From a virus (taxonomy: Duplodnaviria; Heunggongvirae; Uroviricota; Caudoviricetes), in the IMG/VR virus record IMGVR_UViG_2645727970_000008: DNA of 15,836 bases, one strand, 5' to 3'. A program made the translations under genes and the position numbers. Every line of letters begins with the position of its first letter. The first letter of the stretch is position 1. Positions 2,785-7,103 of the stretch are shown here, piece after piece. Under the pieces are notes generated by a model, which ran no database searches, was not told the origin of the DNA, and worked only from the letters and a program-made list of their open reading frames with translations.

Positions 2785-2804
2785 TTTTATTCCCGGCATA
2801 GATA

Positions 2805-2821
2805 AGAATAAGTCTTATTCT
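2805..2821 (-). promoter_or_regulatory. 17-bp palindromic operator candidate (AGAATAAG-T-CTTATTCT) overlapping a TAGAAT -10-like hexamer upstream of the TonB-CTD lipoprotein gene
   Basis: Perfect inverted repeat read directly from the sequence, 21-37 nt upstream of the start codon. AT-rich hexamer content is loosely Fur-box-like. Confidence 0.35.
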
Positions 2822-3459
2822 AACAATGCAGCCCTGTCGGTCATCAATCCTCTGCTTAATGGCAATGACAATTATCCGACTTAAATCACAAATCAGACAC
2901 ATGACATAACAGAGCTTGCGAGGTAACACATCGTCCGGTTTCTTCCACCATCGCACCGGACCAGCGACCATGAGGGGACAACGCCGCGCTCCGTTAACAC
3001 GGTAAACCCCGGTGTGTATCGTTTTTGATTATCCCCGCACACTCGCGCAGAGGAGTCTCCCTCTCGGGCTGTGGTCTCTGTTGATGCGGGAATACGGCGA
3101 CGATACAGTGCATAGTTATGTCAGGCTAAAATGCCTTTATCAAATCTGGGTAACGCAATCTGCCATTGTTGGCTCCGGTTGTGGTGATGATGTCAAGCAA
3201 GCCCATCTTGACTATCTCAACTAGTCGATTCATGACATATGTCACATTTATACCAACCAGATCATTGCGTTGAGTTTACAACTCAATAATTCTTGGTTGG
3301 ACGTCAAGTTTTGACGGTATTCGGGTGGCAGTTGATAGCAATCTTGGAACCGTCCACCTAATAGCTGCTTGTGTGGCGTTTAAATTGTGGAGTGCTCGCA
3401 ACAGAACTTTTCTTTCTTGTTTGCGAGCGATGTTTAGCAACTTTTAAGAGAGTTAAGTC

Positions 3460-3690
3460 ATGGAGTTTTTGAAAGAGCATCATTTGCCTTCAATAATTTT
3501 TGGAATTTTTTCCGCCATTTTTTGGATTATTTCATGTTTTGCATCTTCCAAAGAACACCCACCAAAAACGGAACAAGGCAGTTTCTCATCACTGGGTTGT
3601 TTTAAAGCCATTGAAATACAAAGTAAATGGAATAAACGGGCTGCTTTTTGCGCAGCGTTAGCTGTTCTTGCTCAAGTATTTAGCTTTTAG
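3460..3690 (+). CDS. Small membrane protein (76 aa, two hydrophobic segments); opposite-strand moron between Rz and cos
   Basis: ATG with GAGAG upstream, hydrophobic stretches LPSIIFGIFSAIFWIISCFA and AAFCAALAVLAQVFSF, and a strong intrinsic terminator immediately after the stop. Confidence 0.5.
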   Translation: MEFLKEHHLPSIIFGIFSAIFWIISCFASSKEHPPKTEQGSFSSLGCFKAIEIQSKWNKRAAFCAALAVLAQVFSF

Positions 3691-3696
3691 TTTCAA

Positions 3697-3735
3697 AAGT
3701 GTAAATCAGAACCACTCGTATAGCGGGTGGTTCTC
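3697..3735 (+). terminator. Rho-independent terminator (10-bp stem GAACCACTCG/CGGGTGGTTC, TATAG loop, T-rich tail); may also act on the minus strand downstream of Rz
   Basis: Hairpin plus TCTGTTTTATT read from the sequence, directly after the 3460..3690 stop and about 70 nt past the Rz stop on the other strand. Confidence 0.7.
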
Positions 3736-3806
3736 TGTTTTATTCGTGTTGCGACTAAAACTAACTAAAATCACGCATATGAAAGATAATGGGAAAATTA
3801 TCGCTA

Positions 3807-4244
3807 TCATCGAAGGCATTGCGTCCTAATGTACTCCTGCAAGTAGTTAACCTGCGCGGTTATCCTGTCGATTCCACTTCGGAGACGGTAATAATTGAGT
3901 TCAGCATCTGCTGTAAGTCCTGGGGTTTCTCCATTGCCCATGCCGCTGGCTCCGGTCGTTGACTTTGCACAGGTGGCGGCGACTTGCAGGCGCTTACGCC
4001 CAGCAGAAACATCAGCACGGAGACTTTCGATAGTCGCATTAGCATCAGCAAGCTCCTTTGTGTATCTGGCGTCAAGTTCTGCTACATCACGTTGCCGCTT
4101 CTGCATATCAGCGATGATGGATGTGGCTTTATCGCGCTGCTCTTTGTAGGCGATGGCGTTATCACGGTAATGATTAACAGCCCATGAAAGGCAGACGATG
4201 AGGCAGATGACCAGAACGTAGATAATCGCGGTTACTCTGCTCAT
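3807..4244 (-). CDS. Rz: Rz i-spanin (inner-membrane spanin subunit)
   Basis: From the ATG at 4244 ([31 protein letters not shown]...), near-identical at the N-terminus to lambda Rz as recalled. ATGA overlap with the endolysin stop. The track ORF begins at an upstream GTG (4256). Confidence 0.9.
3860..4045 (-). CDS. Rz1: Rz1 o-spanin, embedded in the +1 frame of Rz (lipoprotein, proline-rich mature part)
   Basis: Embedded ORF with signal peptide and lipobox ([20 protein letters not shown]) followed by [16 protein letters not shown]. Exact start Met is uncertain (track ORF starts at 4075). Confidence 0.75.
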
Positions 4245-4738
4245 TGTTGCCCCCACAAACAGACTTCACGCTCAATCTCACGGCGAGTCATCAGCCCTTT
4301 CCATTGCTTACCGCCAGCGTATGTCCAGCGCCGTAGCTGATCACATGCGCCTTTGATATCGCCCTGGTTTATTTTGCGAAGAAGCGTCGATGTTCTGAAA
4401 TTGCCAGCGCCCACGTTGTAAACGAACGAGTAAAGAGCGCCGCGCGTTGTTTCCGGTATATCGACGTTGATGTACGGGTTAATTTGTCTGGCGACCGTGG
4501 CAAGGTCTTTATTCAGGAGGGCTTTGCATTCTGCTTCGGTATACGTTTTACCGGGCATGATGTCTTTTCCGGTGTGTCCGTGACATACAGTCCATACGCC
4601 AACGATATCTTCGTATGGTATGTAGCTGACACCTTCCAGGCCATCGTCACCACTCGGACCAGTGATGAGCACAGACGCTATGGCAACAGCCCCACCACCA
4701 ATAGCAGCAGCAACGGCTTTTCGTAATGATGGAGGCAT
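4241..4738 (-). CDS. R: SAR endolysin (phage 21 R-type lysozyme)
   Basis: 165 aa. N-terminal Gly/Ala-rich SAR segment [27 protein letters not shown], then a lysozyme core ([19 protein letters not shown]...). Start ATG overlaps the holin stop (TAATG). Confidence 0.95.
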
Positions 4739-5027: not shown

Positions 5028-5200
5028 ACGCCGGGAGCCGTGATTATGGCATTCAGGCTCTGCTAAAAATGCCAGATAACATTCCGGCCAACCCCTGATT
5101 CAGGTTATAAATGACACAATATCTTGACAACATCCGTCACTGTCTGTCAGAAAATGTACTGCCAAGTATAAGTATCATGTGAAGTACATCTACCCGTTTT

Positions 5201-5237
5201 AGCCAGCGTCCTTCAGAGTGGGCGCTGGCTTTTTTTA
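5201..5237 (+). terminator. Strong plus-strand-specific rho-independent terminator (11-bp stem, 8-nt loop, T6 tail)
   Basis: AGCCAGCGTCC-TTCAGAGT-GGGCGCTGGCT followed by TTTTTTA on the plus strand. The minus-strand version lacks a U-tract. Confidence 0.7.
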
Positions 5238-7103
5238 TTATGCTGCCGGTGCATTTATCTCCAGCACCAGACTTTCTATCTCAACGCCATACGCTGCATT
5301 TTTTGTAACATCCGTCAGCGTCAGCGCATTCAGTCCCAGTGTCAGACCGTCTTTTATAACCTGGAATGCCGGGCCAGCCACTCCATTCAGTTTCGGAGTA
5401 ACCGTGGCACTGCCGGCGGTGAACACCAGCTCCAGCGTCTGCCAGTCGTTACCGTAACCGCCGAACTCCCCCAGCTTCGTGTTTCCGGCTTTCCTGTGAT
5501 GCATCAGATTCACTCTGCCGTCAGTGGTCTGAGTGAAGTAAGACATCAGGAACGGATTACCAGTACCCGTCATCGCCACATCATCAGGAACGGGAGCGTC
5601 CGTATACAGATAAATCCCCAGCCCGAACTGATTGTTGGTCAGTGCGCCTGAGAGGCGGAACTTACAGGTCAGTCTGCCGCCCTGTGTCAGCAGGGTAATT
5701 GCGTCATCCACCGGATGCATCAGGGACCAGGTTTTATTGCTCTGCTTGGTGATCTTAAATACACCATCTGACAACTGAATTCCGCCATTCTTAATGCTCC
5801 AGCCCTGCGCAGCAGCATCTCCGGCTGTCGGCAACAGGGAGATTGTGCGTACGGATGCATCTTCAGACGGCCCCGATGGCGTGTCGCCGCCGGGCGAGGG
5901 TTTGATTTCCGGTGCCTTACCACTAATGAAGGCTAAGGTGCGACCGGCTACGTTCAGAATAGCAGTTGCCATACGATCGGGAATAATGCCACGACGCGCC
6001 CATGAGCTGAAATGCGTCGGGCGATTTGATGATACCCAGTTTTTGTTCGTTCGGGATGCCGAACCGTAATAACCAGACCCGGCAATATCAGGATCTTCTG
6101 ACGGGTTGTTTGTCGGTGTATTAACTCCGCTACCATCGGTCATAAAGGGAACAAAATAAATCTGCTGGGATTCTTTACCTTTATATGCACCATATACCAC
6201 TTCATATTGCGTACCGTGTTCTTGTTTCCACGCGTATGTCGTGTCGCCACAAATCCAGGGGACTGATGCCGGACTTCCACCGTGACACTGCGCCGCCAGC
6301 CCGGCAAAGTCAGCACGGAACTGCTGTACCATTGCAAGAAATGCTGCTGGCTGCTGGGCGTAACTGGCATTCGTCATATCGAATTCCCCCTGCATCCAGC
6401 ATATCGCCAGCAAAACGTTTTTCGGGTTTTTCTGCAATGCTGCCTTCGTGCGGAAAAGCAGATCCTGATATAACGGCTTACCCACTCCCCAGCGAGCCGA
6501 ATCCTGACTGGCCCCCGTGGACTCGCTGAATGTCCCCTCCGTGCCCTGGGTGAATGCCGAACCACCACGACAGCATGGTACCAGCAGGATCCCCGCGTTA
6601 TTCGGGATATACGGAAGCAGTTTTTTGGCAATATGTAAGCCCTGGCCGACACAGCCGTACTGCCCTTTGCTCAGGTCTGCCTTCGGATGATTCAGCGTAC
6701 TCATATCCTGCACATCATGCAGGCAGTGGTCGGCCGGAATAATATCGTTATATCTGCAGGCAGCCCCACCCGGCGTCACTGTACTGCGGCGCGCCAGCTG
6801 TTTAATGCGCGGATCCGGAGCATCGTATGAATCCGGCAGCGGAAGCCCTTCACCGTAAGCCATGGCATTGGACTGCCCGGCCAGTACGATGACGTAGTAC
6901 CAATCCGGCTCAGTTGCACCACTGACCACCACATCACCTTCTGCTGTAATCGCCTGCATCAGAGTATAAGGGGTTATGGCCACCGGACTACCAAACGGCT
7001 GCCAGCCCTCTTTCAGTTTATGTGTCAGCTTTTCCGCAAGATCTGACGGCGACGCCGCCCTGACAACATCATAGTGTTTAAATGCCATGGTTCTTTCCAC
7101 CAT
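5238..7103 (-). CDS. nanS-p: NanS-p-type sialate O-acetylesterase (DUF1737 N-terminus, SGNH/SASA esterase core, C-terminal lectin-like domain)
   Basis: 621 aa ORF with esterase motif VLAGQSNA and the N-terminal MAFKHYDVVRAASPSDLAEKLTHKL segment typical of the family found downstream of stx in Stx phages. The second Met at 7088 has the better Shine-Dalgarno, so the true start may be 7088. Confidence 0.85.
   Translation of the reverse strand: MVERTMAFKHYDVVRAASPSDLAEKLTHKLKEGWQPFGSPVAITPYTLMQAITAEGDVVVSGATEPDWYYVIVLAGQSNAMAYGEGLPLPDSYDAPDPRIKQLARRSTVTPGGAACRYNDIIPADHCLHDVQDMSTLNHPKADLSKGQYGCVGQGLHIAKKLLPYIPNNAGILLVPCCRGGSAFTQGTEGTFSESTGASQDSARWGVGKPLYQDLLFRTKAALQKNPKNVLLAICWMQGEFDMTNASYAQQPAAFLAMVQQFRADFAGLAAQCHGGSPASVPWICGDTTYAWKQEHGTQYEVVYGAYKGKESQQIYFVPFMTDGSGVNTPTNNPSEDPDIAGSGYYGSASRTNKNWVSSNRPTHFSSWARRGIIPDRMATAILNVAGRTLAFISGKAPEIKPSPGGDTPSGPSEDASVRTISLLPTAGDAAAQGWSIKNGGIQLSDGVFKITKQSNKTWSLMHPVDDAITLLTQGGRLTCKFRLSGALTNNQFGLGIYLYTDAPVPDDVAMTGTGNPFLMSYFTQTTDGRVNLMHHRKAGNTKLGEFGGYGNDWQTLELVFTAGSATVTPKLNGVAGPAFQVIKDGLTLGLNALTLTDVTKNAAYGVEIESLVLEINAPAA

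Follow-up and report, generated by a model that had tools for sequence, protein, structure and literature searches.

A decayed terminase gene as probable promoter and leader region of a divergent membrane-protein gene in a lambdoid prophage of Escherichia coli

Positions 3230-3459 of the prophage record IMGVR_UViG_2645727970_000008, just 5′ of a small plus-strand open reading frame (ORF, 3460-3690), are the subject of this analysis. The window, that is, the whole stretch of 15,836 nucleotides (nt) that was analysed, is a lambdoid Escherichia coli prophage whose late operon is on the minus strand, and the segment sits there in a 675-nt gap without an annotated gene. The 901 bases around the segment are 100% identical to enteropathogenic E. 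coli (EPEC) E2348/69 and five other complete genomes. The segment is contained in 12 of 5426 complete E. coli genomes, and the RefSeq annotation of E2348/69 calls no gene across it. An earlier note on this DNA had described a noncoding region dense in inverted repeats, lying upstream of an opposite-strand moron encoding a membrane protein, and had proposed that the repeats were operator sites or a structured RNA leader controlling that gene. Its description of the 3460-3690 gene proved right, since the gene lies on the plus strand, against the direction of the late genes, and encodes two hydrophobic segments. The word noncoding was apt insofar as no gene is annotated, but the note had missed that the segment belongs to a pseudogene fragment. 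The minus strand of 3164-3434 is almost certainly the decayed 5′ third (approximately 90 N-terminal codons) of a terS gene, encoding a small terminase subunit of the Terminase_2 type, and the segment probably supplies the 3460-3690 gene of this prophage with its promoter and long leader.

The identity of the relic was established at the protein and the DNA level. In a tblastn search, residues 15-89 of the TerS protein of E. coli GN25 aligned to window positions 3392-3174 with 60% identity (E 2e-20) and one stop, the minus-strand translation of 3392-3174 reading LHNLNATQAAIR...SKLDVQPRIIEL, the stop, and then TQRNDLVGINVTYVMNRLVEIVKMGLLDIITTTG. DNA identity to intact terS genes was 76% for E. 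coli GN25 and 68% for Cronobacter phage phiES15, and the distant DNA matches fell within genes annotated as terminase small subunit. The intact homologues match PF03592 at 1.5e-40. The window relic scores 21.7 bits against this family (E 3.4e-4; gathering cutoff 26.1) and the corresponding relic of phage P22 scores 57.5 bits; the translated window relic also matches phrog_51 (terminase small subunit, E 2.5e-7). An uninterrupted terS ORF of about 170 residues with a start codon is not present at the relic. At the position of the start codon the window has GCGATG, compared with GTGCCAT in a Citrobacter homologue, and with its stop codon and lost start codon the region cannot hold an intact, translated gene. 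The P22 relic is the same fossil, decayed by a frameshift and two stops. P22 and the window have in common both the TAA-ACT codons and the left junction at which the relic joins the orf80 start codon, which indicates a single origin of the relic.

The left border of the relic is a recombination joint. On its left side lies the 3′ end of rha with its downstream sequence, and on its right side the ribosome-binding site and ATG of the orf80 (DUF2560) lineage, followed by the relic. In the window, a later recombination at TCTGCC swapped orf80 for the rha tail. The rha remnant itself comprises the last 14 codons or so of a gene for a Rha-family regulator (3121-3164) and its downstream region (2900-3120), with 96% identity to many E. 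coli prophages that have an intact rha, and the fusion of rha and orf80 at 3158-3163 leaves an 8-codon mini-ORF on the minus strand. Replacement of the packaging module would have left the 5′ third of the old terS behind, the Nu1-type terS being the one now in use.

The fossil is homologous to the region upstream of pid in P22-like phages. In a blastn search, 31 P22-like phages matched 87% of the query, with approximately 83% identity over 256 nt (3165-3420; E 6e-67), and the annotated pid gene of phage BTP1 lies where the match ends. The window is thus homologous to the P22/BTP1 region, taken as some -240 to +130 when counted from the pid start, and identity declines stepwise towards the cargo gene (Table 1). 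In P22, pid is transcribed from a weak promoter with the -10 box AATCCT at 181-186 base pairs (bp) before the start codon, and the mutations C-183A and C-182A in this box raise the activity 6-fold and 4-fold, respectively (Wolput 2022, PMC8835761). The start determined by differential RNA sequencing in P22/BTP1 is located 174 nt before the ATG, and the full P22 transcript has 476 nt (PMC8835761). A segment of the P22 5′ untranslated region (5′UTR), +110 to +162, is required for a shorter 'S-band' pid transcript, and the terminator hairpin, for which a mutant is documented, stabilises the mRNA (PMC8835761). The reporter fragment Ppid232, which begins exactly at the palindrome discussed below and includes the core promoter, is inactive (PMC8835761), so that the P22 promoter requires sequence further upstream. 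A further report places pid among the most highly transcribed prophage genes of BTP1 lysogens (PMC7067206).

When these landmarks were placed on the P22 sequence and on the alignment, the whole P22 promoter and approximately 130 nt of the 5′UTR fell inside the terS relic, in antisense orientation. The origin of the pid-type region from a terminase fossil is unmentioned in the pid literature checked: the words 'terminase' and 'remnant' are absent from the primary pid papers, and the passages of related papers that were consulted do not mention a terminase origin. An antisense terminase remnant would offer an evolutionary account of the unusual pid promoter and its long 5′UTR.

Transferred to the window, these data outline how the cargo gene may be expressed. 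A weak sigma-70 promoter on the plus strand of the fossil would fire from about G3300, which corresponds to approximately nt 1295038 of NC_011601.1 (minus strand), and transcription would proceed through a leader of some 160 nt into the divergent cargo gene and end at the intrinsic terminator. The module would be the same as the one that drives pid in P22/BTP1, for which alone the -10 box, the start site, the length of the 5′UTR, the role of the terminator and the pattern of expression (phage carrier state or lysogen) are experimentally known. The leader hairpins at 3302-3316 and 3394-3428 may affect the stability or processing of the mRNA. The last part of the leader is the original spacer between terS and the moron, homologous to the spacer beside the intact terS of Citrobacter sedlakii (L084), and a sister copy from E. 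coli (L085) has AAGGAGA at the Shine-Dalgarno position. The cargo gene is real and under purifying selection, its ratio of nonsynonymous to synonymous substitution rates against the Citrobacter homologue being 0.19. Neither the 76-residue protein nor Pid has a Pfam or PADLOC match. A stretch of an EPEC prophage that carries no annotation is in this way tied to the characterised Ppid module of P22, which predicts the mode of expression of the 76-residue membrane protein.

Several observations weigh against a promoter and leader at this place. The predicted start site was taken over from phages of Salmonella. With 6 of 12 consensus positions the promoter is weak, and a simple promoter scan made no call at 3265-3293; its sole plus-strand match near the gene was 3469-3497, inside the ORF. 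Because Ppid232 is inactive in P22 and the window left of 3158 is unrelated to P22, activity in the window could differ. The leader is strongly diverged from that of P22 (66-70% identity over 3301-3434), and the predicted leader (3300-3475, plus strand) folds no better than shuffled sequences (z = -0.43). Finally, there are only two or three fossil lineages, which leaves tests of constraint with little power.

Table 1. Features of the region and its surroundings in window coordinates; promoter, start and leader are predictions from homology with P22/BTP1
Feature	Position	Strand	Remarks
Nu1-type terS	1217-1765	minus	Present working terS of the prophage; the late operon also has the large terminase
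TonB-like gene	2458-2784	minus	TonB C-terminal domain, PF03544, E 2.4e-15
Left recombination joint	3158-3163		Microhomology TCTGCC; alignment A5 with RM10466 rha, P22 and L045; RM10466 annotation
terS relic	3164-3434	minus	Start codon lost; in-frame TAA at 3276-3278; cut at about codon 92
P22 homology, part 1	3164-3232		94% identity
P22 homology, part 2	3233-3300		88% identity
P22 homology, part 3	3301-3393		70% identity
P22 homology, part 4	3394-3434		66% identity
Beyond P22 homology	3435-3459		Unrelated to P22 (44% aligned)
Palindrome TGACATATGTCA	3233-3244		Centre 3238.5, 61.5 bp upstream of the predicted start
Imperfect hairpin	3253-3300	minus (late transcript)	48 nt, 19 pairs; contains CCAACCA/TGGTTGG and TTGAGTT/AACTCAA
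-35 box TTGCGT	3265-3270	plus	Predicted; 3/6 consensus; TTGCTT in P22; 17-bp spacing to the -10 mapped in P22 (alignments A1, A2)
-10 box AATTCT	3288-3293	plus	Predicted; homologous to P22 AATCCT by alignment
Transcription start G3300	3300	plus	Predicted; homologous to the P22/BTP1 start, NC_002371.2 nt 40880; L002 position 845 mapped in A1
Leader	3300 to ATG 3460	plus	Predicted; about 160 nt
Stem-loop CGTCAA-GTT-TTGACG	3302-3316	plus	+3 to +17 of the predicted mRNA
Hairpin GCTCGCAA-N19-TTGCGAGC	3394-3428	plus	+95 to +129
Original terS/moron spacer	3435-3459	plus	Shine-Dalgarno-like GAGAG at 3448-3452
Cargo ORF	3460-3690	plus	76 residues; two hydrophobic segments (hydropathy); RefSeq hypothetical; phrog_14357, unknown function
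Intrinsic terminator	3708-3744	plus	Strong; 12-bp stem with a T-run after it; shares no homology with the terminator of P22
Holin, lysozyme, Rz	3807-4256	minus	Late operon

The inverted repeats on which the earlier note had based its proposal were found at the positions it named: the perfect 12-bp palindrome TGACATATGTCA, the two nested repeats at 3253-3300, and the pair GCTCGCAA/TTGCGAGC (3394-3401/3421-3428; 8 bp with a 19-nt loop). The outer nested repeat, CCAACCA/TGGTTGG at 3253-3259/3294-3300, has 7 perfect bp, the claimed eighth position being a G-T, and encloses TTGAGTT/AACTCAA at 3270-3276/3280-3286 (7 bp, 3-nt loop). Three more stems of 6 bp occur at 3302-3307/3311-3316, 3298-3303/3351-3356 and 3313-3318/3349-3354. 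When the segment was compared with 1000 dinucleotide shuffles of itself, the asserted density of repeats was borne out, if mildly, with 7 perfect stems of 6 bp or more where the shuffles gave 2.55 ± 1.55 (approximately 2.7 times, p = 0.013) and 3 of 7 bp or more where they gave 0.64 (p = 0.027). The longest stem, of 8 bp, was not unusual by the same comparison (p = 0.15). RNA folding of 3230-3459 also beat the shuffles on both strands (z = -2.17 plus, z = -4.20 minus), and the prediction of a structured RNA held to that extent; it failed for the leader taken alone and no Rfam family matched the region.

Conservation of the repeats gave a different picture. Covariation in a pattern-seeded alignment of 43 sequences seemed to support the stems, but this set was biased, the search pattern containing the -35 box and the structure having been taken from the window. 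In a protein-seeded alignment of 61 rows, comprising 59 diverse intact terS genes and two relics, no covariation was found for any stem, with values equal to those of shuffles, and the stems were therefore rejected as conserved features of the family. The earlier note had said that its proposal would be refuted if the palindromes were not conserved in homologous loci and had no regulatory effect. Conservation of the repeats as operators was not found: the counterpart of TGACATATGTCA is TGACATGTGTCA in P22, and GGACGTATGTCG or GCACATAAGCAG in intact terS genes. The nested inner stem (3270-3286) is specific to the window lineage. The stem at 3302-3316 appears as TGTCAG...TTGACA in intact terS genes; in the window type T-A has become C-G, and in P22 the stem is disrupted. 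Among the repeats named beforehand, the 3394-3428 stem is the only one that falls in the leader. It is homologous to P22 +98 to +132 and so overlaps the S-band segment; P22 and intact genes have a weaker stem at the corresponding place, and all 8 bp are perfect in the window lineage only. One of its pairs changes from A-T to G-C in the window type, one pair is variously G.U, A-U or G-C, and in the sister variant L071 a pair is broken. Apart from the hairpin at 3253-3300, the inverted repeats are mostly peculiar to single lineages and reflect the decay of a pseudogene. A small conserved hairpin, GCYGCTTGYGTGGC followed by GTTTAAAT, lies at 3364-3377 on the plus strand (+65 to +78), with counterparts in P22 and in terS genes that are intact; the invariant LNATQAA codons of the helix-turn-helix encode it, and it resembles a terminator with an interrupted T-run.

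The hairpin at 3253-3300 spans the -35 box to +1 and consequently lies outside the moron mRNA. Its folding was evaluated by simulation over 3233-3300, in which the observed substitutions were re-placed at random on the consensus of intact terS genes, assumed as the ancestor, in 600 runs. The simulated expectation was about -9 ± 2.4 kcal/mol. The window sequence folds at -19.0 kcal/mol on the plus strand and -22.7 kcal/mol on the minus strand, and none of the 600 simulations reached the minus-strand value. The P22 sequence folds at -21.2 kcal/mol on the minus strand, a value again reached by 0 of 600 simulations, but only at -10.6 kcal/mol on the plus strand (p = 0.13). The eight differences between the window and P22 are compensatory for the hairpin (p = 0.007 and 0.037), and four pairs of the P22 hairpin are G.U, possible only on the strand of the late transcript. 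On these comparisons of sequence, the hairpin appears to be maintained in both fossil lineages, most probably as RNA of the late transcript.

A possible, though unlikely, extension of this view is that the repeats act altogether on the other strand, 3253-3300 forming, between the lysis and the head genes, an RNA element of the polycistronic late transcript. Such an element could serve for processing by RNase III or stabilise the RNA as a hairpin, and its overlap with the moron promoter would be incidental. The stronger fold of the whole segment on the minus strand speaks for it, as do the 19 or so pairs, the compensatory differences and the fact that both fossil lineages keep -21 to -23 kcal/mol where -9 kcal/mol would be expected, in P22 on the minus strand only. 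Its weak points are that the lineages number only two, that the hairpin does not covary among the 59 intact terS genes, and that the simulation took a consensus as ancestor. A role in the late transcript is compatible with a promoter and leader derived from the terminase fossil and does not exclude them.

It could also be that the density of repeats is neutral and without function, quasi-palindromes of terS having been perfected by template-switch mutagenesis after the coding constraint ended; this explanation is doubtful to about the same degree. The intact terS consensus already folds at -16.3/-14.5 kcal/mol over 3233-3300, and the inner stem arose when GAA became ACT at 3281-3283, three neighbouring substitutions that produced the exact complement of the opposite arm. 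Adjacent changes of this type are a signature of templated mutation. That the stems differ among lineages and that the 3394-3428 stem is broken in a sister variant is also in keeping with neutrality. Templated correction, however, yields perfect Watson-Crick repeats, whereas the P22 stem relies on G.U pairs and forms on one strand. Moreover, the persistence of a 270-nt relic across approximately 17% divergence in tightly packed genomes suggests that it has been retained for a reason.

As operators, the repeats are a less likely proposition than either an RNA element of the late transcript or templated mutation of quasi-palindromes, and of the control suggested by the earlier note it is the promoter and long leader, homologous to the P22 pid region, that are supported, not the operators. 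A repressor operator set, with two or more related conserved dyads at the promoter, was not found. The improbable alternative here is that a dimeric regulator, be it a phage repressor, a CRP-like activator or another protein, binds the palindrome, the repeat bracketing the promoter or both, and controls the moron. The centre of the palindrome at -61.5 is the classical position of a class I activator, and its right flank, TCACATTT, is presumably the right half of the CRP consensus, a match that is speculative; the left half (CATGA) is poor. The half-sites TGACA/TGTCA are common to both fossil lineages and absent from intact terS genes, the repeat enclosing the -35 and -10 boxes is kept in both, and the P22 promoter depends on sequence upstream of -232. 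On the other hand, the palindrome occurs once in the window, no second site being found even with up to 2 mismatches, and the P22 fragment that starts at and contains the whole palindrome is inactive. P22 has an overlapping alternative, ATGTG-T-CACAT, instead of the perfect 12-mer, which means that neither form of the palindrome is fixed. The P22 repeat that spans the promoter pairs well only as minus-strand RNA, through its four G.U pairs, and is thus a poor fit to a DNA operator.

A small protein or known RNA family encoded here, in place of a promoter and leader, is highly improbable: ORFs of 40-54 residues do exist (3325-3447 plus, 3276-3440 minus) and phrog_36099 matches the translated relic (E 1.9e-16), but the minus-strand ORFs are the terS frame interrupted by a stop, the P22 frames are broken in other ways, the plus-strand ORF 3325-3447 is not kept because of indels, a leader peptide or relic ORF being rejected since reading frames are not preserved, and Rfam gave nothing in the region at the gathering threshold for the whole window and only noise for 2800-3900 up to E = 5. 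The family phrog_36099 (52 residues, 'unknown function') matches the translation of 3174-3290 on the minus strand; it probably consists of ORFs called in the terS fossil of P22-like phages and is likely to be a spurious protein family.

The promoter and leader of the window can be placed in a wider context by looking at terS genes that are still intact. A DNA-pattern scan of viral contigs recovered 76 loci, of which 69 had full flanks and represented 39 distinct core sequences. The 76 loci comprised approximately 45 intact terS genes, relics of the P22 type, relics of the window type and a third type of relic with another cargo (L045/L081). All but three of the distinct types among the full-flank loci had a divergent ORF, and those that start with ATG begin roughly 15-30 nt beyond the start of terS. 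The slot holds at least 10 unrelated cargo families, and its highly variable cargo includes Pid, the 76-residue protein and, beside intact terS, an 83-residue relative of it, a 111-residue ORFan, DUF2158 proteins, proteins of 129-172 residues and a HEAT-like peptide. Cargo proteins other than Pid and the 76-residue protein have only DUF2158 or sub-threshold Pfam matches, with no defence or other known function in Pfam or PADLOC. Homologues of the window cargo adjoin intact terS genes in Citrobacter (L084) and in L014/L033, the Citrobacter homologue at a distance of 27 nt. With a spacer this short, the promoter of the cargo must lie inside terS. When genomes were scanned independently from a protein seed, 73 usable loci were obtained from many Enterobacterales, with a divergent neighbour in 39 of them by a crude classification of ORFs. 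A single metagenome scan with a fossil-specific pattern returned the three known types of relic and chance matches, and no further lineage.

Codon usage is consistent with an embedded promoter. The final T of the antisense -10 box pairs with the first base of the Arg50 codon, and here 51% of terS genes use the rare AGA or AGG, compared with about 7% for Arg at five other positions. AGA or AGG at Arg50 is linked to the presence of a divergent ORF (26/13 versus 7/23, Fisher p = 6e-4), although this comparison ignores phylogeny. Relatives whose terS is intact would carry the module inside the coding sequence itself, the cargo being exchanged beside it. The general model that follows is advanced tentatively, its chances being put slightly below even. 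The 60 or so N-terminal codons of enterobacterial Terminase_2 terS genes would be a portable antisense platform, supplying promoter and leader to whichever cargo occupies the divergent slot 15-30 nt upstream of terS, with the conserved terS sequence serving as a homology arm for cargo exchange; after replacement of terS the platform would remain as a fossil, which would explain the 'exceptionally long 5′UTR' of pid, and the same stretch would also carry the hairpin of the late transcript and, in intact genes, a covarying direct repeat, so that coding and regulatory functions would overlap several times over.

The direct repeat is an observation on intact terS genes (L086-L165). At codons 42-47, equivalent to window 3302-3318 on the minus strand, there is a repeat of 5-6 nt with a 10-nt offset, whose variants (CTGTCA..CTGACA, TTGACA..TTGACA, TTAGCA..TTAGCG, CTAACA..CTAACA) covary across lineages, the synonymous Leu42 codon included. 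Matches numbered 214 of 295, against 162 ± 6 in permutations (0/2000). This suggests a constraint inside terS at the DNA or RNA level, perhaps a pac or TerS-binding repeat. If a widespread cargo slot exists beside Terminase_2 terS genes, it would be an aid to finding lysogenic-conversion or carrier-state genes. It would also provide a tractable case of a promoter within an essential gene, where a synonymous Arg change can destroy the antisense -10 box.

The remainder of the late region contains further elements of interest. Upstream of terS, the late region of E2348/69 also has a small opposite-strand DUF3950 gene, and this gene and the TonB-like gene suggest that the interval from the lysis to the packaging module has further moron-like inserts. 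E2348/69 carries IS200C and ISEc13 between its holin and SASA-esterase genes; judged by ORF spacing, these approximately 2.3 kb are absent from the window (about 5100-5240, compared with 10205-12174 in L001), which indicates that the window stems from a relative of E2348/69 and not from that strain itself. Elsewhere in the window, all on the minus strand, there are a full-length match to the STnc100 small RNA family (RF02076; 7709-7898, 132 bits, E 1.7e-29), a match to RF01794 (107 bits; 13090-13261), which is the antitoxin RNA sok of toxin-antitoxin loci of the hok/sok type, and two prophage transfer RNA (tRNA) genes (8598-8671 and 8772-8844), whose RefSeq counterparts in E2348/69 are tRNA-Arg and tRNA-Ile.

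Among characterised systems, the pid locus of P22/BTP1 (Cenens 2013, PMC3573128; Wolput 2022, PMC8835761) is like the window in its place in the late region between lysis and packaging genes, its orientation against the late genes, the left junction to the orf80 start codon, and the order of a small ORF followed by a Rho-independent terminator. The predicted -10 box and start position of the window are homologous to those of P22, with AATTCT in the window for AATCCT in P22 and a predicted leader of about 160 nt for one of 174 nt. The two loci differ in their cargo, the 76-residue membrane protein being unrelated to the 86-residue Pid (phrog_16546) with no homology after 3434, and the last 25 nt or so of the window leader and its terminator are likewise unrelated to those of P22. 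The rest of the leader has diverged and bears its own perfect 8-bp hairpin. Upstream of 3158 the window has the rha remnant where P22 has orf80, and its host is E. coli. The second point of comparison is provided by the intact Terminase_2 (PF03592) terS genes of phiES15 (gp28) and GN25 (WP_044704358). Window 3174-3392 (minus strand) aligns with their codons 15-89, and they have a small divergent ORF directly upstream of their start; unlike these genes, the window copy lacks a start codon, contains an in-frame TAA, is truncated and scores below the Pfam cutoff. The third is bor of phage lambda, an autonomous opposite-strand moron unit in the lysis-packaging interval of lambdoid phages. The location is similar and the unit likewise consists of promoter, ORF and terminator set against the late operon, with no sequence relationship to the window. 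In contrast to morons of the bor type, the promoter and leader in the window would derive from the coding sequence of a terminase gene rather than from an imported intergenic promoter.

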